Positions 874 to 59,216 of a stretch of DNA of 64,000 nt are shown here, piece after piece. The translations under genes and the position numbers were made by a program. Below the pieces are notes generated by a model, which worked only from the letters and a program-made list of their open reading frames with translations, was not told the DNA's origin and made no database searches. The stretch comes from a virus: the IMG/VR virus record IMGVR_UViG_3300010371_000029, positions 1 to 64,000 of that record, one strand, 5' to 3'. Numbering within the stretch: position 1 is the stretch's first letter; each line of letters begins with the position of its first letter.

Positions 874-1089
874 TTAATTACAAAAATCTACCTCATAAAT
901 TCCTGTCCCATCATCTTCGCCGGTAGGAGTTATTTTTCTTCTTAATTCAATTAACCATACATTATTTTCACTTTTAAATGGTACTCCATTCACAAAATAT
1001 CTAAAATAGGTTATTCCCTCTCTAAAAACCTCGGTCCCAATAGGGAAATGGGGACAACTTGGGCGAGTTGCTTTAAGCAACCTATACAT
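874..1089 (-). CDS. LTRP-tag family small protein
   Basis: Starts MYRLLKATRP; closest paralog is the neighbouring gene (CP..IG.E.F...I.Y.R.FV...P.KS). Confidence 0.8.
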   Translation of the reverse strand: MYRLLKATRPSCPHFPIGTEVFREGITYFRYFVNGVPFKSENNVWLIELRRKITPTGEDDGTGIYEVDFCN

Positions 1090-1351
1090 GGGAGCTATGC
1101 TCCATAAAATAGGGATGGAATCTCAAAACTACTCCATTCCTAACTAATGAGAAGTGTTCTATATAGAAGGATACGTTTCCGTCAAAAGCACCGTATATTT
1201 CTTTCCTTAAAATACAGTGCCAACCTTGCCTTGATTTCTGTGGTGTCGCAGCCACAAAGAATCTACAATATTCAATATTGCCCAAAAATAATTCGCGGCC
1301 TATATAAAGGGGACAGACCGGTGGTCTAGTAAGTTTCAATAAATTATTCAG
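1082..1351 (-). CDS. LTRP-tag family small protein, probable CTG start
   Basis: CTG-AAT-AAT-TTA-TTG-AAA-CTT-ACT-AGA-CCA = (M)NNLLKLTRP, with AAGGAG 7 nt upstream of the CTG. The ORF track start (1339) truncates the tag. Confidence 0.75.
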   Translation of the reverse strand: MNNLLKLTRPPVCPLYIGRELFLGNIEYCRFFVAATPQKSRQGWHCILRKEIYGAFDGNVSFYIEHFSLVRNGVVLRFHPYFMEHSSHV

Positions 1352-2048
1352 GAGTAAACTCCTTTAAAAAAGAAAGTAAATCTTCTTTATGGGCCGCCAG
1401 CCCCTTATAGCGAAGACTTTCTTCGCTCATGGATTCTATATGGGCGATTACACTTTCCCTATCTAGTTGTGCTAGCGGTACAAGTTCTTGTCTCAAAATA
1501 AATAGCAGGCTTTTGGCCTGCGGAAGTCCAATAATATATTGATGTTCCCTTTTTAAATTAATATATGGGCGAGCCTTATCAAACTTAGCTTGCGTCAGCA
1601 ACGGATGGTGGTCTATATTGTCCGAAAATATTAAAGAATCTACGGTCCTATAAAACGGCCCCTTATAAATAGAAGTTGCAAGCAACTTCTTTGAAGACTT
1701 TAGAGGAAAGCTAGGTATTTCCTTATGAAGGTCATAAAATGACATTCCTATAGCTTTAGCTGGGTCCCAGCCGCTAGGCACGGCCATATTGGCGTAGGCT
1801 AAATAGTCATCACAATGAACACAAATATCCTCGGCTATAGACATACATATTAAATCTAAATCACAATATCTTCCAGCCGCGCCGAGTTTATTTATAAGTA
1901 ACTCACATACAGCTTTCTCTACTTCTGGGGCCAGTTCATGTTGGCATATATATATTTTCTTAACTGGGATATCTGTTTTTCTTAATTTAATGTCGTCTAA
2001 GGCGATTTTACTAAGTGCTGGAAGCACTGAATATGGTGGAACCCTCAT
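1344..2048 (-). CDS. DUF3445 / heme-dependent oxidative N-demethylase alpha-subunit-like protein
   Basis: EDICV...LAYANMAVPSGWDPAKAIGMSFYDLHKEIP resembles the DUF3445 motif ED...PSgW.p..kiG.sf..iH.pvP. Confidence 0.65.
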   Translation of the reverse strand: MRVPPYSVLPALSKIALDDIKLRKTDIPVKKIYICQHELAPEVEKAVCELLINKLGAAGRYCDLDLICMSIAEDICVHCDDYLAYANMAVPSGWDPAKAIGMSFYDLHKEIPSFPLKSSKKLLATSIYKGPFYRTVDSLIFSDNIDHHPLLTQAKFDKARPYINLKREHQYIIGLPQAKSLLFILRQELVPLAQLDRESVIAHIESMSEESLRYKGLAAHKEDLLSFLKEFTPE

Positions 2049-2305
2049 AATTCAATATTATATCCCAAATTAATAAGTCTACGTCCATAAGGCTCTAAAC
2101 TGTAAGTCTGTAAAAAACTTTTAATTTGAACGGGCATTGTCCAATAATGTTTACAATCACCAATAATTAATTTTTCTATACATAGAATTTGATTATTTTC
2201 TATTAATACAACTTCTCTTTTATCTTTTGGGTCCCCATAATAATATAAAATCATGCCAACTCGAACAATATTATTTGGGCGAGTTAAACGTAATAAATTA
2301 TTCAT
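2045..2305 (-). CDS. LTRP-tag family small protein
   Basis: Starts MNNLLRLTRP; C-terminus YSLEPYGRRLINLGY. Confidence 0.8.
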   Translation of the reverse strand: MNNLLRLTRPNNIVRVGMILYYYGDPKDKREVVLIENNQILCIEKLIIGDCKHYWTMPVQIKSFLQTYSLEPYGRRLINLGYNIEL

Positions 2306-2570
2306 TGTAAAATACTACATAAGATACTAATGTACAATTTGTGGATTCAAACACTAATCGGGGATTTTGTTCTAATAATTCTTTGGGGACAATTTTTCTA
2401 ATTGCTTCCCAGAACTTATAAGTTGCCAATAAATTATGGCCGCGTTCGCTCATCATTTCCCAATGAAGTTTATAAATCTCTTCTAAGTTTTCTACTGGGA
2501 TTAGCCACCGACCGATTTCGTTGGGGCCTTTTGTGGGTTGCAATGTTTCTTTTTTACTAAAAAACCACAT
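2298..2570 (-). CDS. Hypothetical protein
   Basis: 90-aa ORF with AGGAG RBS, overlapping the next gene of the operon. Confidence 0.75.
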   Translation of the reverse strand: MWFFSKKETLQPTKGPNEIGRWLIPVENLEEIYKLHWEMMSERGHNLLATYKFWEAIRKIVPKELLEQNPRLVFESTNCTLVSYVVFYNE

Positions 2571-2578
2571 TTTTACTC

Positions 2579-2695
2579 CTATTTAAGTTCCGAACCATAA
2601 TTGCTCAATATTCTATATTTATTGCCAGTAAATTTTCCAATTACTATCCGACCCCTTGCGTCAGGTGGTCTGGTAATTTTTAAAATCTGGTTCAC
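2579..2695 (-). CDS. LTRP-tag family protein, truncated (38 aa)
   Basis: Below the ORF-track cutoff: MNQILKITRPPDARGRIVIGKFTGNKYRILSNYGSELK*. GTG start overlaps the upstream TGA; resembles the first half of 2692..2919. Confidence 0.7.
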   Translation of the reverse strand: MNQILKITRPPDARGRIVIGKFTGNKYRILSNYGSELK

Positions 2696-2919
2696 ACTGG
2701 TCCCCCATCTTCACGATGTAAATTATAAGTAAAAGCTTTTATGATATCTCCAATCCTGTAGAATGTATAATTAGTTTTTAATACTTCACAAGAAATTCTT
2801 CTATCTCCACCGTTGCCATAAGGTTCCGAAAGAGCCCGGTAAATATTTCCGGTTTTGTGACTTATAAGTATGGACCCCGTGAGACCTTTAGGTCTAGTTA
2901 ATTTCAATATAGATTTCAT
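2692..2919 (-). CDS. LTRP-tag family small protein
   Basis: Starts MKSILKLTRP; ends LHREDGGPV. Confidence 0.8.
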   Translation of the reverse strand: MKSILKLTRPKGLTGSILISHKTGNIYRALSEPYGNGGDRRISCEVLKTNYTFYRIGDIIKAFTYNLHREDGGPV

Positions 2920-3149
2920 GAATTTCCCTTATTGAGTGTTGGTCCACCCCTTGATAAACTCAGGAACCTTATATCTTGTTTTATATAACTCCATAAAAGT
3001 TCGTGACTACATGATGAATATCTATCTATATCTACTTTATTGTCATAAATCGAACTTGTCGCTATATAATAATATTCTTCTTGAGAATTAATATAAAGTA
3101 CAGTACCGGGCCTTACCTTCATACGTGTAAGTTTTAATAATTGATACAT
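2916..3149 (-). CDS. LTRP-tag family small protein
   Basis: Starts MYQLLKLTRM; ends LSLSRGGPTLNKG. Confidence 0.8.
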   Translation of the reverse strand: MYQLLKLTRMKVRPGTVLYINSQEEYYYIATSSIYDNKVDIDRYSSCSHELLWSYIKQDIRFLSLSRGGPTLNKGNS

Positions 3150-3736
3150 TTGTTTATTTTCTCTACAAGTTCTATAAAATTATTGGTCTCAAATTCAAAA
3201 TGGTCATTCTGACCATAGATATCTTCGCCATTCCTTTTAATTAGGGCTGTTCTCATCCCTACCGAGCGGGCACCGCGTAGGTCGAAATTATGGGCCGCAC
3301 ACATAAGCGTCTCACTAGGTTCTACGCCTAAAGACTTACACGCCCCCAAATATACCTTAGGGTCTGGTTTAAAAGCACCGAAGTCTGTAGACGAAAAACA
3401 ATAATCAAATAATCCATATCTTCTATTAATAGAACATAGTATCCTGGGGGTTGCATTTGATAATGCTACCGTAGGTATTTTAAAATTTTTAATAAAATAA
3501 CTATCCTCCCATAGAGGGGCAAACTCCATAGCATTAATAAATTTATCATAGTTTTCGGGGCTAAGATAATCTTTTAAAGCTTCTTCAAAATTCAAATCTT
3601 GATAGTTGTGAGCGACCGCCCCATAGGCCCTTAGAGTTTCTTTTACCTTGCTTTCGGTTCCGAAAGCTTGTAATAAAGAATATTGAACGTTTACTAACGT
3701 TCCAAAAACATCAAAAAAAATATAACGAATTTTCAT
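3134..3736 (-). CDS. HAD-superfamily hydrolase, haloacid dehalogenase type II-like
   Basis: Motif I FFDVFGTLV, then LSNA, KPDPKVY and AAHNFDLRGARSVGM. Confidence 0.85.
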   Translation of the reverse strand: MKIRYIFFDVFGTLVNVQYSLLQAFGTESKVKETLRAYGAVAHNYQDLNFEEALKDYLSPENYDKFINAMEFAPLWEDSYFIKNFKIPTVALSNATPRILCSINRRYGLFDYCFSSTDFGAFKPDPKVYLGACKSLGVEPSETLMCAAHNFDLRGARSVGMRTALIKRNGEDIYGQNDHFEFETNNFIELVEKINKCINY

Positions 3737-4011
3737 AAAAGAGGTTTCCCGTTTTCTCGTAACATATTATCCGCCGAAAACATACCAGTTTCACTAAATT
3801 GTCTACCGCCCGGCTCTAGTTGATAATGTCCGATTGGTTCCGAAGTATCTCTATATATAGTATTGTTTTGATATCTATCTAATTCAAAATATCCATCTTT
3901 TTTAAAAGAAACAATTATATAATATTGACTCCCGGTACAAGGGCAATATATTTTATCGCCCACTTTAATAATTGGGACCTTTGGTCTAGTAATTCGCAAA
4001 AGATTATTCAT
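3733..4011 (-). CDS. LTRP-tag family small protein
   Basis: Starts MNNLLRITRP; contains IKVGDKIY and YQLEPGGRQFSETG. Confidence 0.8.
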   Translation of the reverse strand: MNNLLRITRPKVPIIKVGDKIYCPCTGSQYYIIVSFKKDGYFELDRYQNNTIYRDTSEPIGHYQLEPGGRQFSETGMFSADNMLRENGKPLL

Positions 4012-4712
4012 CAGAGTCTAGCTATAACAGTAAAGAGTTCACTCATATAGTCTACAACGAAATTAAATATACCGGGGCTAATATTTTCGCTGTTACCAGC
4101 TATGTTTAAAACTTTTATATTCTTTTCAATAATCCAATTTATTACCGTTTCAATTGGAAGAGCGTTAGTTATATTAATATCTAGAAACGGTTTATTATAG
4201 CAAGATATAGCTCTTTCCGTACAAATTTCGCCCGGCGAATTAAAATTACTAGCGAATCTTAATGTCCCGTCAGAATCTCGCGCGTTCTCATAGGTGCGGG
4301 GCGCATATTTGGAGGAACTATGCTCGGTTACACCATACCTCTCAGCGTACTCCGGCTTTGGTCCTTCTAAAGTAATGAACCCTTTCGGCATAACGCCTCC
4401 GGTTTTATAACCAAAACTTTGGCCGACATGTAACCCCGCCAAATCAGCGCCGCACTGACCACCGCTACGAATTTTTCTTAACGGAAACCGCCATTTATAT
4501 TCGGGCACTTCTATTTTAGGTCCTACTTCGATTTTTCGTTCTTCAAATATTTCATCAGACGCTACTGCTTCCCAAGGATAACTAGACTCTCCGTTATAGT
4601 AACCAACAGTCCAAGGTTCAGTTGGACCATCCTTGACATATTCTTTACCTGACCAGACCATAAATCTAATTAGATAATATCCTTTATCTCTCAAAATAAT
4701 AACCCTCCTCAA
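4011..4712 (-). CDS. GYYWV-type N-terminal domain fused to a circularly permuted YpsA/SLOG (putative molybdenum-carrier family) domain
   Basis: KIRSGGQCGADLAGL...GGVMPKG...YAPRTYENARDSDGTL...VLNIAGNSE. The first ~75 aa resemble 5641..5829 and 6345..6545. Confidence 0.75.
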   Translation of the reverse strand: MRRVIILRDKGYYLIRFMVWSGKEYVKDGPTEPWTVGYYNGESSYPWEAVASDEIFEERKIEVGPKIEVPEYKWRFPLRKIRSGGQCGADLAGLHVGQSFGYKTGGVMPKGFITLEGPKPEYAERYGVTEHSSSKYAPRTYENARDSDGTLRFASNFNSPGEICTERAISCYNKPFLDINITNALPIETVINWIIEKNIKVLNIAGNSENISPGIFNFVVDYMSELFTVIARL

Positions 4713-4932
4713 TTAAATAAGGACCATCTGGTACTATTCTATTTTCATTTAAATATCCATAAAAACTATTAGAATCTGGCAAATTATTATTAATATTCCA
4801 AAGTATTACTTCTTTATTTTCATAATCTATACTTTTAAGTTCAAATAAGCATGGTCCTGTACGAAAATATGTTAAGAGCCCAGGTTCTATAAGAAAGGGC
4901 TGCCCCCTCGTAAGTTTAAGCATCTCCCTCAT
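4684..4932 (-). CDS. LTRP-tag family small protein
   Basis: Starts MREMLKLTRG; ends PDGPYLIEEGYYF. Confidence 0.8.
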   Translation of the reverse strand: MREMLKLTRGQPFLIEPGLLTYFRTGPCLFELKSIDYENKEVILWNINNNLPDSNSFYGYLNENRIVPDGPYLIEEGYYFER

Positions 4933-5168
4933 ATAGTAAATCCCAACTCATCTAGAGCAGGACCTCCTTGTTCTAAAGCCCAATATTTAAAGAATGATTC
5001 CTGTTTTTGCCAATTAATTATAGAACTTCCTTTTAATTGTTTCATGTATATGAATTCGTTAGTTAATTGATGAACTATCCAAATATGTTCTTGGGCTCTA
5101 AAATAAAGAGGTTGTCCTTCATACAATTTATTTTTAATTGGTCTAGTTATTCTTAATAAATTATTCAT
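4929..5168 (-). CDS. LTRP-tag family small protein
   Basis: MNNLLRITRP from the second Met (5168); ends LEQGGPALDELGF. Confidence 0.8.
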   Translation of the reverse strand: MNNLLRITRPIKNKLYEGQPLYFRAQEHIWIVHQLTNEFIYMKQLKGSSIINWQKQESFFKYWALEQGGPALDELGFTI

Positions 5169-5409
5169 CTTCAAACCTATAACCTAGCTCAGCTAGGGTT
5201 GGCCCACCTATTTCTAAATGATTTTTATGTAAAACTCCCTCGCGAGTATTTCCAGTTTGACAATTATGCGTTAGATTTTTAATTTCGACCCAATTTATTT
5301 TTAAAACTTTAACTATTTCATACTCATCTGTCCCGGTTACAAAAAATGTTCGGAGGCCCGGTTTAATAATTTTTGACTCGTCCCGAGTCAATTTAAGTAA
5401 AGCTTTCAT
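5161..5409 (-). CDS. LTRP-tag family small protein
   Basis: Starts MKALLKLTRD; ends LEIGGPTLAELGY. Confidence 0.8.
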   Translation of the reverse strand: MKALLKLTRDESKIIKPGLRTFFVTGTDEYEIVKVLKINWVEIKNLTHNCQTGNTREGVLHKNHLEIGGPTLAELGYRFEDE

Positions 5410-5623
5410 CTACTAACCTCATTTGATTTATTTCTATACATTGTTCCCATAAGTTAGTTTTACAAAGAACTTGTCCACAATCTTGTCCTGGTAATATATA
5501 AAAAATAAAACCTGGATTTATCTTAGATATAAATAAAATATAATAAGTATTTCCTACTATATATTTATATTTTTGACCCACCTTAGGAAACGGTAGTCTG
5601 GTAAGTTTCAATAAATTATACAA
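5393..5623 (-). CDS. LTRP-tag family small protein, probable TTG start
   Basis: (M)YNLLKLTRL from TTG at 5623, with AAGGA upstream. Confidence 0.75.
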   Translation of the reverse strand: MYNLLKLTRLPFPKVGQKYKYIVGNTYYILFISKINPGFIFYILPGQDCGQVLCKTNLWEQCIEINQMRLVDESFT

Positions 5624-5640
5624 GGATGAATCCTTTAAGG

Positions 5641-5829
5641 TCAAGCATTGACCGGCTCCTTTATCTTTCGACCAATCTTTTCAAAATTAATATCGGCATA
5701 CCAGATTACGGTCCCCGGAATCAACCAGCTACAAGGCCAGTCTTTTTTTAGATATTGGGCCACAATCCATATGGGCGAGCCTCGCAGGCGAACCCAGTAA
5801 AATCCCGGCTGTCTTATTGAATTTCCCAC
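5641..5829 (-). CDS. GYYWV-family small protein
   Basis: RQPGFYWVR...WIVAQY...W...FEKIGRKIKEP. Confidence 0.75.
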   Translation of the reverse strand: MGNSIRQPGFYWVRLRGSPIWIVAQYLKKDWPCSWLIPGTVIWYADINFEKIGRKIKEPVNA

Positions 5830-6062
5830 CCTGTCTCTCCTAAAGTTGGCCCATCGAGATAAAGTTTAAAGTGTCCTATATTACCAGTTTTGGTTGTGAA
5901 ATCTTTTTCTCTACTATCAATTCTTATAGCATCTGCAATTAACAAATTTTCATTAAATTCTGTAATTACATGGCATAATTGTTTATTACAATCACAATAT
6001 AAGGTCGTTCCGACCGTTAAGACGGGTTTTGTGGGTCTAGTTAATTTAAGGAGATTATTCAA
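5814..6062 (-). CDS. LTRP-tag family small protein, probable TTG start
   Basis: (M)NNLLKLTRP from TTG at 6062; ends LDGPTLGETGW. Confidence 0.75.
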   Translation of the reverse strand: MNNLLKLTRPTKPVLTVGTTLYCDCNKQLCHVITEFNENLLIADAIRIDSREKDFTTKTGNIGHFKLYLDGPTLGETGWEIQ

Positions 6063-6348
6063 AGGATAAATCCTTTCCATATCCCATTTCACGAAGCGAC
6101 GGACCATTTGGGGACAAACTTAATGTGTCAAGATTTGACCACCCATTACCTTTATAATGTTGAAATCCATTAGTTTGAAGAATCGTTCCTTCTATTGAAT
6201 ATCTAATACCATCATCTTCAAATTCTATAAATTTAAAAGTTTCATTTGAAAGGAAAGTCCAATAAGTAATATTAACTTTATATAATCTAGCCCCCACAGG
6301 AATGGGTTGAAGAGGGGGCGGTCTAGTGAGTTTTAGCAAACTCCTCAT
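6055..6348 (-). CDS. LTRP-tag family small protein
   Basis: Starts MRSLLKLTRP; ends SPNGPSLREMGY. Confidence 0.8.
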   Translation of the reverse strand: MRSLLKLTRPPPLQPIPVGARLYKVNITYWTFLSNETFKFIEFEDDGIRYSIEGTILQTNGFQHYKGNGWSNLDTLSLSPNGPSLREMGYGKDLSFE

Positions 6349-6545
6349 GAAGATAATCCTTTTGGTCTTATAACTTCTGGCCCAACTTCTTCAATATATT
6401 TATCGTTATAAGGTATTGGGTCACCTATTTTTATCCAGCAAGGATATTTTTCATTCCAAGATGCAATTTCCCACCGACATGTTTCATGAATATCACCAAA
6501 TTGTTGGTATTTTATTTTTACCCAATAATAACCTGAAGTTCTCAT
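6345..6545 (-). CDS. GYYWV-family small protein
   Basis: RTSGYYWVK...WEIASW...W...IEEVGPEVIRP. Confidence 0.75.
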   Translation of the reverse strand: MRTSGYYWVKIKYQQFGDIHETCRWEIASWNEKYPCWIKIGDPIPYNDKYIEEVGPEVIRPKGLSS

Positions 6546-7012: not shown

Positions 7013-7165
7013 ATGACAAATATTAGGTCCGAACTAATAATTAAAGAGTCAGCCGAGTTAGAGTCTGTACTTGCTTCCACGAAAGAAAGTGTGGAACCCG
7101 ACTTTAGCACTATGACAGAAAAGGAAGTGGAAGCATGGATATTGGCCCACACGAAATCTCAATAA
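7013..7165 (+). CDS. Small hypothetical protein (50 aa)
   Basis: GGAG RBS; MTNIRSELIIKESAELESVLASTKESVEPDFSTMTEKEVEAWILAHTKSQ*. Confidence 0.55.
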   Translation: MTNIRSELIIKESAELESVLASTKESVEPDFSTMTEKEVEAWILAHTKSQ

Positions 7166-7692
7166 TAGAGAAAATTTCTAAACGTTTCTCAAAAAAGTTC
7201 CGGTTCGGCTATCACGACACGGAAGATATAGAACAACAGGCGGCCCTTTATGCCTTAGAGGGGATTAAGGCTTACCTACCAGAGAAGGGTGACCTTGAAA
7301 ATTTCCTCTGCGTTCATGTTCGTAATCGTTTGATGAACTTCAAACGCGATAACTACTTCCGATTGGACGCGCCATGTACTGGCTGCCCCTTTAATAAAAA
7401 CGACGTTTGTACCGCCTTTGAGGACAAGATGGATTGTGAGCTATTCGCCGCTTGGCTACGGAAACGTGAAGTTAGGAAGAACCTAATGAACCCGGCCGAA
7501 TCATATTACGAGAGCGGCAGCCACGCCCCTAATGAGATTGACCGCCGCGAAACCCTTTCCAAGATTAATTCCCGGTTAGACCCACTTCTTCGGGCCGATT
7601 TTCTCCGCATCCTTGACGGGGTGGCTGTCCCCAAACATAGAAAGAATAAAGTTAGGCAAGCTGTTCAGGAGATTTTAGATGGTAAAGCGTAA
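7135..7692 (+). CDS. Phage sigma70-family sigma factor with Cys-rich insert
   Basis: Region-2 pattern EDIEQQAALYALEGIKAY...LENFLCVHVRNRLMNFKR, followed by CTGC...C...C. Confidence 0.75.
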   Translation: MDIGPHEISIIEKISKRFSKKFRFGYHDTEDIEQQAALYALEGIKAYLPEKGDLENFLCVHVRNRLMNFKRDNYFRLDAPCTGCPFNKNDVCTAFEDKMDCELFAAWLRKREVRKNLMNPAESYYESGSHAPNEIDRRETLSKINSRLDPLLRADFLRILDGVAVPKHRKNKVRQAVQEILDGKA

Positions 7693-9739: not shown

Positions 9740-10759
9740 ATGGAAAATAGGAAAGCTGCTGTAACTGGTGCAAATGGACAAACGGGCTCATATCTTTGTG
9801 AACACCTCCTTGAACGTGGATATAGGGTTTTTGGCATCGTAAGGCGGTCCAGTACCGACACCACTGAAAGATTAACTAATATTTTAAATAATCCAGATTT
9901 TGAATTAATTACTTGTGATATTACTGACGGACCCGGAATTACTAATATTATAAGGACTACAAAATGTCACGAACTTTATAACTTGGCTGCGCAAAGTCAT
10001 GTTGGAATTAGCTTTACGGCGGCCCATAGTACATTCGAGGTAACTGGGGCTGCTATTATTCACCAACTAGAAGCTATTAAACAATTTTCACCTAATACTC
10101 ATTTTTTGCAAGCCTCTAGTAGTGAAATTTTTGGAACCAACGGAATAGAAACTGGGCAGAATGAAGATACTTCATTTGCTCCGCAGTCACCCTACGCGGC
10201 GGCAAAAACATTCTCAGAACACATGGTTAAAATTTATAGACAGGCTTACAAACTCCATATTTCTTCAACGATTGCTTTTAATCATGAATCCCCTCGTCGT
10301 GGGTTGGAGTTTGTCACTAGAAAGGTTACTAACTATATCGGAAAATTAAAAAATGGATTAATTAATGAACCGTTAAAATTGGGTAATTTAAATGCGTATA
10401 GGGACTGGTCCCACGCAAAAGACGTAGCGGCGGCTATGCATCTTGTAACTCAATATAAAACCGCAGATACCTACGTTGTTAGTAGCGGCGAAACATATTC
10501 GGTGGAACATTTTGTACGATTAGCATTTAAACTTGTCGATTTAGACTGGAAAGAACACGTTGTTATTGATAAAAATCTATTTAGGCCATTAGAAGTTCCA
10601 TTTTTGAAAGGCGATTCTACTAAGATTAGAACCCTTTTAGGGTGGAGACCAAATTATTCATTTTTGGAGTTATGTCAAGAAATGATAGATAGCGACATTC
10701 AAAAATATGGCAAAAAAACGTCGAAGACTTCGCAAACGTCGCCCGTATTCCAAATATAA
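9740..10759 (+). CDS. gmd: GDP-mannose 4,6-dehydratase
   Basis: VTGANGQTGSYL, YNLAAQSHV, QASSSEIFG, PQSPYAAAK, FNHESPRRG..FVTRK, RDWSHAKD. Confidence 0.95.
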   Translation: MENRKAAVTGANGQTGSYLCEHLLERGYRVFGIVRRSSTDTTERLTNILNNPDFELITCDITDGPGITNIIRTTKCHELYNLAAQSHVGISFTAAHSTFEVTGAAIIHQLEAIKQFSPNTHFLQASSSEIFGTNGIETGQNEDTSFAPQSPYAAAKTFSEHMVKIYRQAYKLHISSTIAFNHESPRRGLEFVTRKVTNYIGKLKNGLINEPLKLGNLNAYRDWSHAKDVAAAMHLVTQYKTADTYVVSSGETYSVEHFVRLAFKLVDLDWKEHVVIDKNLFRPLEVPFLKGDSTKIRTLLGWRPNYSFLELCQEMIDSDIQKYGKKTSKTSQTSPVFQI

Positions 10760-11066
10760 ATATAAGGGTCCTAGTAATCGTAACTATAAAGACCCTAGAT
10801 ATGTAGCTTTTCGGCGAGCGGTTAGGAACAGGGATAAATGTTGCCAATTCCCCGGTTGCCGATATAAAGGCAAAAGACTTGAAGTCCACCATATATGCAA
10901 ATTCAGTGATTATCCCGATTTAAGGTACTTGTCCCCCAATGGGGTGGTACTATGCCATTCCCACCATAAATTTGTAACCGGGCATGAAGAAGTATACGAG
11001 GCTTTATTTAAAATGATTGTGGAAATAAATGAAAGGAAAAATCGTGGACCCCATAATTCTATTTAG
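10707..11066 (+). CDS. Small HNH endonuclease
   Basis: VRNRDKCCQFPGC...LEVHHI...NGVVLCHSHH. Confidence 0.85.
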   Translation: MAKKRRRLRKRRPYSKYKYKGPSNRNYKDPRYVAFRRAVRNRDKCCQFPGCRYKGKRLEVHHICKFSDYPDLRYLSPNGVVLCHSHHKFVTGHEEVYEALFKMIVEINERKNRGPHNSI

Positions 11067-11853
11067 ACAATCTTTAGCCGAAGAAGGTGAATTACAAGCT
11101 ATACAAAAATGTTTTCCTAGTTGTTTTTATAGAAGTTCAATACCAAAAGGTTCTTTAGTTATACCACGATATTCTGCTTTGCCCTATTATAAAGAACTAG
11201 AAATGGACGTTAATGCCTTAGGTTCTTCTTTAATTAATAGTTATGAGGAGCATAATTGGGTAGCAAATTTTTACTATTATGAAGTTCTAAAGAACTTTAC
11301 CTTTGAAACATGGGACGACACCAATTTCTACAGGGCTCCCGAAGGAGCCTATGTTGTTAAGGGCAGAACCAACTCTAGAAAACAGAATTGGAACAAACAA
11401 ATGTTCGCGGCATCTAAAAGGGAAGCGATAAATATTGCGGCGGAACTTGCCGGCGACAGTTTAATCGGCCCACAAGGTATAATTTACCGAAAGTACGTTC
11501 CATTAAAAACTTATGGCTATGGATTTAATGGATTACCTTTTACTAACGAGTGGAGATTCTTTTTTCTTGGTAAACGAATGCTGAGTTGTGGTTATTACTG
11601 GTCCAATTCAGAAACTCGCCCCGCAAAGTGCCCACATGAATGTATAGCTTTCGCCCATGAAGTTGCGGACGCCACCCACGAATTTATTCCTTTCTACGTT
11701 TTGGACATTGCCGAAAAAGCTGAAGGCGGCTGGATTTTAGTGGAGATTAACGACGCCTCGATGAGCGGTTTGAGCGATAATAACCCACACGAACTCTACT
11801 CGAATTTAAGGAAAAGAGTATGTCAAGAATACTTCATTCGCCCAATGATTTAA
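11029..11853 (+). CDS. ATP-grasp domain protein (R2K / DUF4343-like)
   Basis: YVVKG, EWRFFF, FYVLDIAE...WILVEINDASMSGL. Confidence 0.8.
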   Translation: MKGKIVDPIILFRQSLAEEGELQAIQKCFPSCFYRSSIPKGSLVIPRYSALPYYKELEMDVNALGSSLINSYEEHNWVANFYYYEVLKNFTFETWDDTNFYRAPEGAYVVKGRTNSRKQNWNKQMFAASKREAINIAAELAGDSLIGPQGIIYRKYVPLKTYGYGFNGLPFTNEWRFFFLGKRMLSCGYYWSNSETRPAKCPHECIAFAHEVADATHEFIPFYVLDIAEKAEGGWILVEINDASMSGLSDNNPHELYSNLRKRVCQEYFIRPMI

Positions 11854-12667: not shown

Positions 12668-13109
12668 CTTCCTCATCATCAGGGACACTCGCGAACAAAA
12701 AGGACACGGTTATTACTTCGACAATATGGTCACGGAAACCTTAGATGTAGGTGATTACTGCATAAAAGGTTACGAAAATATAATCTTCTTAGACCGCAAA
12801 GCCTCAATTCTTGAATGGGCAAAAAATATTACCGAAGCACGGTTTGAGCGAGAACTTGAACGGGCCATGAACCATCGCTATAAATATTTACTTTTTGAAT
12901 TCTACGCTGAGGAACTTACCAATTTTCCTCACGGTGTTTCCATACCATATAACTTGCGCGGCAAGTTGAAGATGAGTGGGGCATTTCTATTAAAAAGAAC
13001 TTTTGAACTTTGTGTTAAATTTGGAGTTGCACCTATTTTTGCTGGGACAGCCGGGAAACAATTTACTAAAAGTTTATTCAAACGAATTTACGAAAAGGAA
13101 ACCACATGA
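12657..13109 (+). CDS. ERCC4/XPF-type nuclease
   Basis: IIRDTREQ...LDVGDY...DRKAS, a variant of the GDY...ERK motif. Confidence 0.8.
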   Translation: METDFLIIRDTREQKGHGYYFDNMVTETLDVGDYCIKGYENIIFLDRKASILEWAKNITEARFERELERAMNHRYKYLLFEFYAEELTNFPHGVSIPYNLRGKLKMSGAFLLKRTFELCVKFGVAPIFAGTAGKQFTKSLFKRIYEKETT

Positions 13110-16100
13110 AAAAAGAAGGATTAATGAATCCTGACATTATTCAGGACTTGTTAACCTTTGCACACCTTGAACTTGGCGATACTTCTAAAATTATAACTAA
13201 AAATCCCTTTGAAGAATTTCCCAATGAATATTGGTTAGACCAGCCTCATCTCGCAGTAACAAAACTCATGATGAATTTGGACTATCTTCCCTTTATTTGT
13301 AAACATATACTCAACATAGAAATTTTGCCTTTCCAACATGTAGTGATTCGCGAGCTATGGAATCGTCCCTTTCCAATGTTAGTAGGAACAAGAGGCTTGA
13401 GTAAAACGTGGCAGCTAGCAGTTTATTCATTGCTTAGAGCTTTGTTGATTCCTGGGCGAAAAATTATTATTTGTGGAGCCGCATTTCGTCAAGCAAAACT
13501 TATCTTTGAATATACCGATACCTTGTACCGCAATAGTCCAATACTAAGAGATATATGTTCTGGCTCCATCCGGGGGGGTCCTCGTCGCGATATTGATAGA
13601 GTTCAATTTACTATTGGAGAAAGTGAAATAACTGGGTTACCTTTGGGGGACGGTTCCCGTATCCGTGGCCTCAGGTCGCATGATACGATTTGTGACGAGT
13701 TCAGTTGCGTCGGCGTAAACTCTTTAGTAGAAACAAGTTACGGCATCGTTCGGATACAAGATACTAAGGAAAACTTCAGAGATTTAGAATTAATTAACAG
13801 AAACGGTATGTATGAAACGCCTATTTTGTTTAATGAAACTCCTCCGACAGATGCTTATAAAATTACGGTAAGAAATGGGTATAGTTTTATATGTTCGGCT
13901 CATCATCAAGTTGAAACAACGGATGGATTTAAGATTGCTAAAGATTTAACAGAAAACGATTATTTGTGGTTTGATAATAAATATAAGTTTCCAGAAAAAT
14001 ATATCCAGTATAAGGATATTACAGTAGATGAAAATTTGGGTTGGTTAATGGGTATAATTCAAGCAGAAGGATGTTTGACGGGAAAACATCATATTTCGGT
14101 TCATATGACAGATGCAGATTGTATTAATAGAATTATTGATTCTGTACAAATGATTGATTCTTCTATAAGTAAAAGTTTTTATACTAGAGACGCATATATT
14201 GATAATAGAGGTTGGAATTGTAAAGAGGCTTATACAACCCATATTTGTAGTGTGCCATTTAAACAAAAATTAGAATATTTAGGTATGGAGCCAGTTACAA
14301 GTCATTATAAAAAAGTTCCTTGGTCTATATTAAGGTCTCCGAAGTCAGTTGTTATAAGATTCCTAGCGGGTCTTTTTGAGGGGGATGGCAGTGCTTTTAT
14401 ATTTAAAAATAGAGATAACGATAAATCTTTAGGAGTTGCTTTTTATAGCGTATCTAAACAATTTTGTCAAGAGGTACAATTTTTATTACATAAATTAGAT
14501 ATAAGCTCTTATATTAATAAAAGAAAAGGTACTTTAGGAGATAAGAATGACCAACATTTAGTACGTATGAATGGCTTACATGCTAAAAGATTTATGGAAT
14601 TAGTAAATATTCCAAAATGGGAACATATTCTTGAGAATTGTAGAGTTTATCCAAGCAGAAAAAAGAAAGTTATTTATTTGAAAGATAAAGATAGGTGGAC
14701 TACTAGTATTAAAATAAACGGTAAATATAAACGTTATGGTACTTACAAAACTAAAGAAGAAGCTTTAGAAGCATATGAAAAGAATAACCAACCTTTAAAT
14801 TTACCCGTGACTAAAGTAGAAAAATTAGAAGGAAAACACGTTTTATATGATTATGGGCTTCCTTTTACTCATAGTTTCTATGCAAACGGTTTTATTCAAC
14901 ATAATTCTATTCCGCCCGAAATCTACAGCGTTGTAATTGCCGGCTTTGGGGCTGTGTCTTCAAATCCTGTGGAAGCATTTAAGCAATCAGCAAAAATAGA
15001 AGCTTTAAATAAATTGGGGATTGAAAATCCAGAGGACGTATTAGGTGTTTCGTCAATTGTTCCTAACCAATCTATTATAGCCGGAACGGCAAGTTATGCT
15101 TTTGAGTCATATGGTCGTTACTGGCAACGTTATAAAGCTATTATAGAATCTCAGGGTGACCCAGAAAAATTAAAGGAGATTTTCCACGGAGAGGTTCCCA
15201 CTAATTTTAATTGGAAAGATTATTCGATTATCAGGATTCCTTATCAGGCGTTACCCAAAAATTTCATGGACGAAAAAACAATTATGAGGGCAAAGGCCAC
15301 TAGTGAGCCGAGTCAGTTCGCGAGGGAATATTTAGCCTGTTTTCCCTCAGATAGTCAAGGGTTTTTCAAGCGTAGTTTAATCGTTCGTGCTACGGCCCGT
15401 ATGGATAACCCTTTAGTACTTCAAAGTGGTCCGGTTAAGTTTGAAGCTACCTTAAATGGGAGTATGGATAGGAAATATATTATAGGTATTGACCCTGCTT
15501 CAGAAAAGGACAACTTTGCCATAGTTGTATTAGAAATTTGGCCCGACCATAGAAGAGTAGTATATGGGTGGACCATAACTCGCCAGTTGTATAAACAGAA
15601 GATTAAAGAAGGGGCTGCGCCCGAGTTGAATTATTATGATTATTGTGCTCGAAAAATTAGAGATTTAATGAAGGTATTTCCCTGTGACAGAATCGCCATA
15701 GATAGTCAGGGTGGTGGTATTGCGGTTATGGAATCTCTTTCTGATAATTCTAAACTTCAGGAAGGTGAAAGGCGCATCTGGCCCTTGATTAATGACGATA
15801 AGCCAAAAGACACAGATAACTATGAGGGTTTACATATTGTAGACGTTATAAACTTTTCTAACGCTCAATGGGTCAGTGAAGCCAATCATGGATTAAAACG
15901 AGACCTTCAAGATAACATGTTATTCATGCCTTATCTAGACCCGATTTCGTTAGAATTAGCACATATAGAAGATGAGAAAAATTCGCGACATTATGATACG
16001 CTCGAAGACGCTACTATGGAGATTGAGGCTTTGCGCGACGAACTTTGTACTATTGTTATGACCTGTACTTCTTCTGGTAGAGAAAGCTGGGATACGCCCG

Positions 16101-16366
16101 AAACCAAAACAGAGGGCTCTAAGAAGGGAAGGTTAAGGAAAGATAGATATTCTGCCTTATTAATGGCGAACATGACAGCACGTCAAATTCACAGAGCCGA
16201 ACCCGTTGCCGAATACAATCCCGCTGGTGGTATAGCTGGGCAAGCTAGGGGGAACAGGGGCAATTCACTTTATGTAAACGCGCCCGCCTGGGCTAAAGAC
16301 TATGCCTCCCAAGTTGGAGTAAATAGACACCATTCCGGTCCCGATGGAACGAGGATATTTTATTGA
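13106..16366 (+). CDS. terL: Terminase large subunit, intein-containing
   Basis: Walker A region GTRGLSKT, FRQAK, IRGLRS..TICDEF (Walker B); RNase H-like nuclease IGIDPA...IAIDSQGGG...KDRYSA. Confidence 0.9.
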   Translation: MKKEGLMNPDIIQDLLTFAHLELGDTSKIITKNPFEEFPNEYWLDQPHLAVTKLMMNLDYLPFICKHILNIEILPFQHVVIRELWNRPFPMLVGTRGLSKTWQLAVYSLLRALLIPGRKIIICGAAFRQAKLIFEYTDTLYRNSPILRDICSGSIRGGPRRDIDRVQFTIGESEITGLPLGDGSRIRGLRSHDTICDEFSCVGVNSLVETSYGIVRIQDTKENFRDLELINRNGMYETPILFNETPPTDAYKITVRNGYSFICSAHHQVETTDGFKIAKDLTENDYLWFDNKYKFPEKYIQYKDITVDENLGWLMGIIQAEGCLTGKHHISVHMTDADCINRIIDSVQMIDSSISKSFYTRDAYIDNRGWNCKEAYTTHICSVPFKQKLEYLGMEPVTSHYKKVPWSILRSPKSVVIRFLAGLFEGDGSAFIFKNRDNDKSLGVAFYSVSKQFCQEVQFLLHKLDISSYINKRKGTLGDKNDQHLVRMNGLHAKRFMELVNIPKWEHILENCRVYPSRKKKVIYLKDKDRWTTSIKINGKYKRYGTYKTKEEALEAYEKNNQPLNLPVTKVEKLEGKHVLYDYGLPFTHSFYANGFIQHNSIPPEIYSVVIAGFGAVSSNPVEAFKQSAKIEALNKLGIENPEDVLGVSSIVPNQSIIAGTASYAFESYGRYWQRYKAIIESQGDPEKLKEIFHGEVPTNFNWKDYSIIRIPYQALPKNFMDEKTIMRAKATSEPSQFAREYLACFPSDSQGFFKRSLIVRATARMDNPLVLQSGPVKFEATLNGSMDRKYIIGIDPASEKDNFAIVVLEIWPDHRRVVYGWTITRQLYKQKIKEGAAPELNYYDYCARKIRDLMKVFPCDRIAIDSQGGGIAVMESLSDNSKLQEGERRIWPLINDDKPKDTDNYEGLHIVDVINFSNAQWVSEANHGLKRDLQDNMLFMPYLDPISLELAHIEDEKNSRHYDTLEDATMEIEALRDELCTIVMTCTSSGRESWDTPETKTEGSKKGRLRKDRYSALLMANMTARQIHRAEPVAEYNPAGGIAGQARGNRGNSLYVNAPAWAKDYASQVGVNRHHSGPDGTRIFY
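13706..14905 (+). mobile_element. Intein (400 aa) with LAGLIDADG endonuclease and AP2-like domain
   Basis: Begins C-VGVNSLV after DEFS, ends FIQHN followed by Ser. Blocks CSAHH, WLMGIIQAEG, FLAGLFEGDG. Locally more AT-rich. Confidence 0.9.
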
Positions 16367-59061: not shown

Positions 59062-59216
59062 TGTCTAACAAGAAGTGTCTATTAGAATTAACGGTAAAAT
59101 TTGTTCTAAAAAGGTCAATTAATTGTTCGTATGTTATACTACCATCCCAAAGAAGTTTATAATTTTCAGTCATAGGTTCAGGTTTTGGGGCGAGTTATTC
59201 TTAACATTTCATACAT
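59027..59216 (-). pseudogene. Frameshifted LTRP-tag gene
   Basis: ATG at 59216 gives MYEMLRITRPKT*. Removing one base in CCCCAAAA joins it to an open frame PEPMTENYKLLWDG...EDIMQ* ending at 59027. Confidence 0.65.

Follow-up and report, generated by a model that had tools for sequence, protein, structure and literature searches.

Introduction

The sections of PMC9026906 and PMC3012670 that deal with the internal proteins of phage T4 describe N-terminal propeptides of 10–19 residues; in IPIII the first 10 residues are enough for packaging and have their targeting determinants at positions 4 and 7. Between related phages the mature parts of the internal proteins lack conservation and the loci vary. 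Processing determinants are placed at residues 8 and 10 in the section of PMC9026906 concerned. This capsid targeting sequence, which has been turned into a protein-delivery tool, is the main precedent for the genes described here. Small phage proteins that have diversified seldom keep a conserved terminal peptide; where they do, it offers an experimentally tractable clue to the organization of early effectors. In the present study we analyzed a stretch of 64,000 nucleotides (the window), bases 1–64,000 of the linear 130,268-bp IMG/VR virus record IMGVR_UViG_3300010371_000029, which is approximately 73% complete by CheckV estimate, and followed up an array of small genes at positions 874–6348 whose products share a short N-terminal peptide (the tag). 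The carrier of these tagged genes is an uncultured soil phage. We tentatively read them as one lineage-specific family whose N-terminal peptide serves as a linear docking motif, tethered to the body, for a partner common to all members.

Like T4 IPI, IPII and IPIII, as far as those sections describe them, the tagged genes combine a short conserved N-terminal peptide, hydrophobic near positions 4 and 7, with divergent small proteins. A second parallel is SspB, for which the relevant part of PMC9963277 describes a native binding domain, a disordered region and a short terminal segment tethering it to ClpX. The same architecture of folded domain, disordered linker and short terminal peptide is predicted here, although the peptide is N-terminal in the tagged proteins and C-terminal in SspB, and homology of SspB to the tagged family was not detected among the matches listed in our fold searches. 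Finally, PMC12723719 describes, in its part on N-terminal ClpX degrons, an unstructured N-terminal peptide recognized by the host unfoldase, in one case on a phage protein. The tag resembles such degrons (e.g., the lambda O tag) in being N-terminal and predicted to be unstructured. The consensus that Flynn et al. reportedly gave in 2003 for ClpX N-motif-1 (polar, hydrophobic, hydrophobic, basic, hydrophobic) resembles tag positions 3–7, but the invariant Thr-Arg of the tag is not part of it.

Precursor arrays of ribosomally synthesized and post-translationally modified peptides (RiPPs), such as the prochlorosins, join a conserved leader to a variable core. The locus is like them in having many paralogous genes with a conserved N-terminal segment and a variable remainder; unlike them, its variable part is a folded domain of 60–90 amino acids (aa), its conserved part spans only 9 residues, and no RiPP-type modifying enzyme is linked to it.

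Results

Extent of the tagged family

The array at 874–6348 contains 13 tagged N-termini, all on the minus strand, and each of those listed in the original prediction was confirmed. The family proved to be larger than noted there, since the whole record holds 25 intact tagged genes and three remnants, every one on the minus strand, with the consensus M-x-x-[LIMV]-L-[KR]-[LIVA]-T-R, usually followed by P. Members are approximately 70–97 aa long with a single member of 147 aa, and the window itself contains 12 full-length tagged open reading frames (ORFs) of 71–97 aa, one 38-aa copy and one decayed remnant. The tagged copies are distributed along the record as follows.

874–6348, minus: 12 intact copies and a truncated copy at 2579–2695
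59094–59216, minus: decayed remnant, MYEMLRITRPKT then a stop; the profile match there spans 6 stop codons
72.3–73.1 kb, minus: three intact copies
76.4 kb, minus: one intact copy
89.3–89.7 kb, minus: two intact copies
90.7–91.0 kb, minus: one intact copy
92.9–93.2 kb, minus: one intact copy
94.1–94.6 kb, minus: one intact copy
126.0–126.7 kb, minus: three intact copies
~126.8 kb, minus: remnant
128.0–128.3 kb, minus: one intact copy

The tag pattern is beyond chance. A six-frame peptide scan of the record gave 29 motif matches, 27 of which lie exactly three residues past a start codon, all 27 on the minus strand; one further copy has Ala at the Arg9 position, so that 28 copies were compared in the codon analysis. 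A degenerate DNA pattern of the tag matched the minus strand of the 130,268-bp record 21 times and the plus strand once, while the reversed pattern used as a control gave 1 and 4 matches in the same record. Unsupervised clustering of N-termini returned a single 24-gene cluster in the record (23 tagged, one by chance), and the largest cluster in two related phages had 3 genes. A profile built from the 25 members matched 27 places in the record. The distribution is best explained by expansion of the family through local duplication along the non-structural, minus-strand part of the genome.

The members of the array are listed below in descending order of position.

6055–6348, minus: tagged gene, 97 aa, MRSLLKLTRP; ATG start overlaps the upstream stop (ATGA); source of AlphaFold2 model A
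5814–6062, minus: tagged gene, 82 aa from an in-register TTG (NNLLKLTRP); the ORF extends upstream to an ATG at 6107
5393–5623, minus: tagged gene, 76 aa from an in-register TTG (YNLLKLTRL); lacks the C-terminal GP motif
5161–5409, minus: tagged gene, 82 aa, MKALLKLTRD
4929–5168, minus: tagged gene, 79 aa, MNNLLRITRP; start overlaps the upstream GAATAA stop
4684–4932, minus: tagged gene, 82 aa, MREMLKLTRG
3733–4011, minus: tagged gene, 92 aa, MNNLLRITRP
2916–3149, minus: tagged gene, 77 aa, MYQLLKLTRM
2692–2919, minus: tagged gene, 75 aa, MKSILKLTRP
2579–2695, minus: truncated copy, 38 aa, (V)NQILKITRP; GTG start
2045–2305, minus: tagged gene, 86 aa, MNNLLRLTRP
1082–1351, minus: tagged gene of 89 aa when started at the in-register CTG at 1351–1349 (NNLLKLTRP); a start at the internal TTG of residue 5, the sole common start codon, would lose the tag
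874–1089, minus: tagged gene, 71 aa, MYRLLKATRP

A usable start codon had been claimed for every copy. This held for nine copies with an in-register ATG, whereas the others need non-ATG starts: two TTG (5623 and 6062, both with longer ORF options upstream), one CTG (1351) and one GTG (2695). Many tagged-gene starts overlap the stop of the gene upstream. Four of the tagged genes (1344–1351, 2298–2305, 5161–5168 and 6055–6062) begin NTG-AAT-AA[T], with the TAA of the upstream gene (ending ...E*) inside codons 2–3. The recurrent 4-nt overlap of start and stop suggests translational coupling.

Conservation and codon use of the tag

Thr8-Arg9 is invariant in the window (13/13 copies), as had been noted, and over the whole record Thr8 is kept in 28/28 and Arg9 in 27/28 copies. 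In an alignment of 29 sequences with a mean column identity of 19%, L5 and T8 never vary, and M1 and R9 each reach at least 90%. A fixed tag of 10 residues had been proposed; the N-terminal core stood, at residues 4–9, while Pro10 was found in only 59% of the 29 aligned sequences. Columns 4–9 carry 2.1–4.3 bits of relative entropy compared with 0.5–2.0 bits for most body columns, whose maximum is 2.4 bits except for a Tyr at column 28, the start of the barrel (3.6 bits). The bodies are thus far less conserved than the tag, in agreement with the earlier observation.

Codon use over the 28 copies is varied, Arg9 being encoded by five codons (AGA 13, CGC 4, CGT 4, AGG 3, CGG 3), Leu5 by six (TTA, CTT, TTG, CTA, CTC and CTG) and Thr8 by all four. 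Regularity at the DNA level is confined to codons 1–3, where the four copies named above share the junction of NTG-AAT-AA with the upstream TAA. Because synonymous codons vary while the amino acids of the tag stay fixed, the tag is selected at the peptide level, as the original prediction had proposed.

The register from the N-terminus to the tag is constant in all 28 copies. Residue 2 is Y, N, K, R, Q or L in 28/28 copies and small in none (0/28); a small second residue occurs in 62/124 other ORFs of the same genome. Methionine aminopeptidase leaves Met1 in place when the second residue is not small. Since residue 2 is never small, Met1 should be retained, and the tag would always be displayed at a fixed distance from a free Met N-terminus.

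Structure and divergence of the bodies

Two members were modeled with AlphaFold2, one from the window (6055–6348, 25-row alignment) and one distal (128012–128254, 12-row alignment), with the following results, in which pLDDT is the predicted local distance difference test score.

Window member (6055–6348): mean pLDDT 79.8; strands 21–24, 37–44, 47–58 and 61–72, then a short helix; residues 1–10 at pLDDT 61
Distal member (128012–128254): mean pLDDT 82.0; strands 17–20, 23–31, 34–41 and 44–52, then a helix at 53–62; residues 1–10 at pLDDT 50

Both models have one and the same topology, a short first strand, a three-stranded meander and a C-terminal helix, and over most of their length the barrel blocks reach a pLDDT of 85–94. 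No secondary structure precedes residue 21 in the window model or residue 17 in the distal model. The tag accordingly sits outside the modeled fold, unstructured at low confidence, and in neither prediction is it a buried core element, so that the structural result named beforehand as refuting the original prediction did not occur. In wide fold searches the best matches had Z 5.3 (root-mean-square deviation (rmsd) 4.0, 65 aligned) and Z 6.0 (rmsd 3.5, 67 aligned). These best matches were barrels of the KOW, Tudor, NdhS, FeoA and DUF1653 type, with Z values below the tool's level for more than a common arrangement of elements, and the aligned range mostly started between residues 7 and 17. The weak matches fit the body being an SH3-like small beta-barrel, as had been guessed from the sequence; the predicted topology is like that of the SH3-like small barrels KOW, Tudor, Sm, FeoA and DUF1653, with no Pfam sequence match to them.

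A linker of 5–17 residues separates Arg9 from the first conserved aromatic residue, and its Pro content is 17.3% (53/307) compared with 3.4% in the rest of the proteins. Taken with the models, the conserved peptide, variable Pro-rich spacer and confidently predicted barrel have the anatomy of a tethered linear motif and not of a core strand. At the other end, a C-terminal G-P-x-L-x-E-x-G-aromatic motif, reported earlier for about nine copies, is seen by eye in approximately 9–10 aligned window copies, and a G-P-x-hydrophobic motif likewise recurs by eye at the C-termini of the window group, the distal group and the external sequences described below.

To compare the bodies alone, profiles were built after the first ten residues had been cut. 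The window-group profile found its 12 training copies and 0/13 distal copies, the distal-group profile found 11 of its 12 and 0/12 window copies, and neither found a tagless paralog. Profile–profile comparison of window and distal bodies gave a probability of 1%; the tags of the two groups are the same. In pairwise body-only BLAST, 13/29 bodies had no partner at E < 0.001, and the closest pairs were neighboring genes with 31%–43% identity. The bodies of the two groups are nonetheless probably homologous, because their predicted topology is the same and the C-terminal motif recurs in both. The isoelectric point ranges from 4.5 to 9.9 across members and the net charge of the barrels also varies widely. 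A co-fold prediction with three copies of the 4929–5168 member gave neither support nor counter-evidence for a homo-oligomer.

The bodies had been called hypervariable. We find instead old, deeply diverged paralogs: some subtypes have counterparts of 28%–40% identity in other sources, and for this reason the paralogs appear, from their sequences, to be old and maintained, with no indication of ongoing hypervariation. The idea of a modular address on unrelated cargo was not borne out either, as the 28 tagged ORFs all appear to belong to a single small-barrel family and the record carries the tag on no protein of another kind; with the same topology in both models, a tag marking unrelated cargo folds was ruled out.

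Occurrence outside the record

Database searches placed the family in no known group. No Pfam family matched better than E 0.02 and none recurred (29/29 aligned members scanned). The best of the PHROGs matches, for 10/25 intact members, was a "transcriptional regulator" phrog at E 0.0063 with one member, which did not recur. A sequence-profile search of the PDB gave no match (best E 1.1), Foldseek against PDB and BFVD returned nothing at E ≤ 0.001, and the best feature score in the ESM Atlas (0.81) is no better than chance on the figures given for that tool. SspB, Hfq and the T4 internal proteins were not among the 50 matches listed in either wide fold search, which excludes nothing.

An exhaustive hidden Markov model search of 1.84 billion representative proteins gave 22 matches, 20 of them the record's own and two external (P0021 and P0022), both of which carry the tag and the C-terminal motif. 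Word-indexed searches with members A1 and A5 found, respectively, only 6 of the record's own proteins, and 5 own proteins together with P0023. P0023 is identical to one gene of L099 and lies on a 68,488-bp ENA contig. Scanning metagenome contigs with the DNA pattern gave 12 loci, of which 11 look like chance and one, L099, is real; in the 3,066 bases read of this 41,093-bp metagenomic phage contig, which carries P0021, a 1.7-kb segment has four tagged genes, all on one strand. The sources of the tag outside the record are therefore this unrelated-looking phage contig with its four tagged genes and one further protein, P0022. The identity of P0022 to the 5161–5409 member is 40% over 73 residues and that of an L099 gene to the 92934–93215 member is 28% over 76 residues.

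A degenerate MNN-tag DNA pattern gave 0 other instances in IMG/VR viral contigs, and no loci related to P0021 or P0022 were found in viral contigs. Two unrelated metagenome contigs, L093 (~10363–10391) and L096 (~4415–4443), have in common a short frame, ...ERLMNN[IL]L[KR][IL]TRP, with a stop soon after; L096 has no long ORFs and is not phage-like, and the frame is probably unrelated to the tagged family.

Four phages whose major capsid protein is 69%–70% identical to that of the record (G001–G004) gave no family-profile match at E < 0.1, and only background levels of the degenerate tag DNA pattern. In the two relatives compared (G001 and G003), 40/195 ORFs of the record were matched; because the relatives share few genes with the record, the tagged family belongs to the variable gene fraction. 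The 131,022-bp G003 has 132 non-overlapping ORFs of at least 40 aa (table 11) compared with 198 in the studied record and 246 in the 166-kb G001. The capsid protein had no match in INPHARED, where no cultured phage is close. One DNA sequencing run, a soil metagenome that may be its source, contains the stretch, with no RNA run listed. The tag motif was nowhere found in print by full-text search, its heptapeptide matching only an unrelated ion-channel paper, and a keyword search for published tagged phage paralog families gave nothing relevant.

Genome context

A plus-strand block at 7–56 kb encodes an intein-bearing terminase, portal, cement protein, capsid protein and tail genes, the portal being 21% identical to known portals. 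Outside this block everything is on the minus strand, including all tagged genes, and the structural block contains none of them. Their minus-strand company comprises a split DnaE, DnaB, primase, RecA, ribonucleotide reductase, methylases and glycosyltransferases, together with NUDIX, macro, HD and phosphoesterase genes. Among the head-module ORFs no protease family was found that would mark a prohead protease. The record gave no match to Peptidase_S78 or CLP_protease, for which controls gave signal, and none to Peptidase_S77, for which the silent control makes the result uninformative. No AAA+ protease gene or other obvious receptor was recognized in the 130 kb. Genes interleaved with the tagged genes, or referred to below, are as follows.

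1344–2048: HODM-like protein between tagged genes
3134–3736: HAD hydrolase between tagged genes
4011–4712, minus: circularly permuted YpsA/SLOG protein between tagged genes
11029–11853: R2K-clade ATP-grasp
75104–75586 and 81746–82147 (G000): macro domain protein and NUDIX protein, respectively
113722–114489: papain-family peptidase

Several small unrelated ORFs are also interleaved within the array. A second small paralog family lies inside it (5641–5829 and 6345–6545, minus; mutual match E 7e-06), and the first ~70 residues of the circularly permuted YpsA/SLOG protein match this family weakly (E 0.035); its members and the N-terminus of that protein all open with a G-Y/F-Y-W/L-V/I motif. The circularly permuted YpsA SLOG protein, HODM-like protein, R2K-clade ATP-grasp, macro domain and NUDIX proteins near the tagged genes are of types typical of nucleotide/ADP-ribose conflict systems. 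The R2K ATP-grasp and papain-like peptidase are absent from the four relatives, which is uninformative as only 40/195 ORFs are matched in the two relatives compared. A CAP-domain neighbor here has no significant similarity to a 134-aa neighbor in L099, for which Pfam gave no match.

The DNA polymerase III alpha gene is split (G000 69061–74902) into a PHP/NTPase part (73064–74902) and a finger/helix-hairpin-helix part (69061–70626), with three tagged genes, a DnaQ-like exonuclease and a helix-turn-helix protein between the halves. The terminase large subunit, a D12 methylase and a 674-aa protein each have both intein and LAGLIDADG matches, the terminase also having a Hom_end match, and a glycosyltransferase and the ribonucleotide reductase have LAGLIDADG only (window 13106–16366; L105:961–3759, L105:15778–17598, L106:12577–16041, L107:14636–16660). 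This intein/LAGLIDADG load is unusually high for one phage. Two sigma-70-like factors were found, a weak one at 7135–7692 (region 2 only, E 2e-4) and a clear one at G000 67752–68210 (regions 2 and 4); they suggest phage-directed transcription phases, which could time tagged-gene expression. The first 600 bases of the record are 52%–56% G+C compared with ~30%–40% elsewhere and include the end of an ORF on the minus strand, 121 aa long, which has a hydrophobic segment and is unmatched in the phage collection. This stretch may be a foreign insert, a host junction or the chimeric end of a contig.

Discussion

The record contains a family of genes under peptide-level constraint at their N-termini, with the tag predicted to lie outside the fold, ahead of a variable linker. 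Each member consists of the nonapeptide Met-x-x-hydrophobic-Leu-Lys/Arg-hydrophobic-Thr-Arg, a Pro-rich linker of variable length and a predicted small SH3-like barrel which, in many copies, ends in the second short conserved motif (G-P-x-L...). In the mechanism that we propose, the unbound nonapeptide would lack structure; displayed at an N-terminus that stays free and uncleaved, it would be recognized by a single partner common to all members. The barrels, having diverged in surface and charge, would offer different surfaces while the handle coupled every member to that same partner. Such a partner would most likely be some cytoplasmic machine of cell or phage, such as an AAA+ unfoldase/protease or a different hub, that works during the non-structural phase. 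The members could then act as adaptors or decoys with a common handle, or could have a turnover signal in common. That docking occurs, and with what, is our inference. The retention of the tag on the 25 intact genes of this genome and on genes of at least one other phage, while the bodies diverged beyond profile detection, implies a single strong interaction shared by all. A turnover or adaptor handle for an unfoldase/protease and docking to another hub are not separable versions of this reading, and it is to the two jointly that our tentative preference applies.

A number of points weigh against a docking motif. No partner turned up, and no ClpP-family match or AAA+ protease gene was recognized in 130 kb of the ~73%-complete record, so that a protease partner would have to be the host's. 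The tag is found on one barrel family only and may be part of that family's own function and not a transferable handle. Its low pLDDT could reflect the shallow alignments (25 and 12 rows) and not real disorder. The second conserved element at the C-terminus makes it possible that the two termini pair with each other. Finally, a simple hydrophobic docking peptide does not account for the invariant Thr8-Arg9.

A more far-reaching version, which we think rather improbable, would see in the family a panel of at least 25 binders with one universal address peptide, each barrel capturing a different host protein (e.g., a defense factor) and the handle delivering it to one host machine (e.g., an AAA+ protease), or else loading the panel into the virion for injection.

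Among the alternatives to docking, the tag may be a structural or assembly element, either a strand or short helix that completes a barrel in trans or a segment that pairs with the C-terminal motif of the same or a neighboring subunit. Conserved motifs at both termini with a variable middle fit this explanation, as do the restriction of the tag to one fold, the failure to find a tagless paralog, and the alternation of hydrophobic and polar residues at 4–9, which, judged from sequence, would suit a beta strand. Nevertheless we regard it as unlikely, since the best-conserved stretch is unstructured at low confidence in both monomer models and a Pro-rich spacing of 5–17 residues is hard to square with a fixed intramolecular packing register.

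Capsid or virion targeting as for the T4 internal proteins, in which the peptide binds the scaffold or inner capsid and the proteins are packed and injected as early effectors, appears quite unlikely. The tag is similar in length to that of T4, with hydrophobic residues at positions 4, 5 and 7, and the bodies are highly divergent. However, positions 8–10 are T-R-P with no conserved acidic residue after the tag, and the tagged family, unlike the T4 internal proteins, has no protease-processing site there; no prohead protease was recognized in the head module and no S78 or ClpP family in the record. All 28 copies lie on the minus strand in non-structural blocks, among genes of replication and nucleotide metabolism, and none in the 7–56 kb structural block. 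The T4 set is a small number of unrelated basic proteins, whereas a single barrel fold is present here in 28 copies; no larger protein or enzyme carries the tag, and no sequence relationship to the T4 proteins was detected. Furthermore, the four phages with a 69%–70% identical major capsid protein have no such family. We thus found nothing specific for the T4-like capsid loading raised in the original prediction.

The tag might also be a recognition site for a modifying or processing enzyme of phage or host, with Thr8-Arg9 modified or cleaved. The near-complete conservation of these two residues (28/28 and 27/28) with free codon choice is in keeping with such a site, and the phage encodes an R2K-clade ATP-grasp, a papain-family peptidase and a macro domain protein whose substrates are not assigned. 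The R2K clade is predicted to be a protein-directed peptide ligase in the section of PMC4431377 that treats it. No link was found, however, between any of these enzymes and the tagged family. Carboxylates are the targets of ATP-grasp ligases, and acidic residues are absent from the tag; we consider this explanation highly improbable.

Conservation at the nucleic-acid level, as a translational-coupling junction, initiation-region signal or recombination site of gene cassettes, has next to no likelihood and is largely refuted, for although it is common for a start to overlap the stop before it, the opening codons are rich in A/T and four copies share the NTG-AAT-AA junction, codons 4–9 are synonymously free (AGA vs. 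CGN, TTR vs. CTN) with their amino acids fixed, and the junction motif covers only codons 1–3 in a minority of copies.

As a family with no Pfam or PHROGs match from an uncultured soil phage lineage, the tagged genes sample unexplored phage gene space. Finding the partner of the tag would provide a function for these orphan genes and might turn the peptide into a small portable tool for docking, turnover or packaging. Should the panel version prove true, the array would be a natural system for targeted degradation or for virion loading, and the nonapeptide a transferable, programmable address of a kind not described before.

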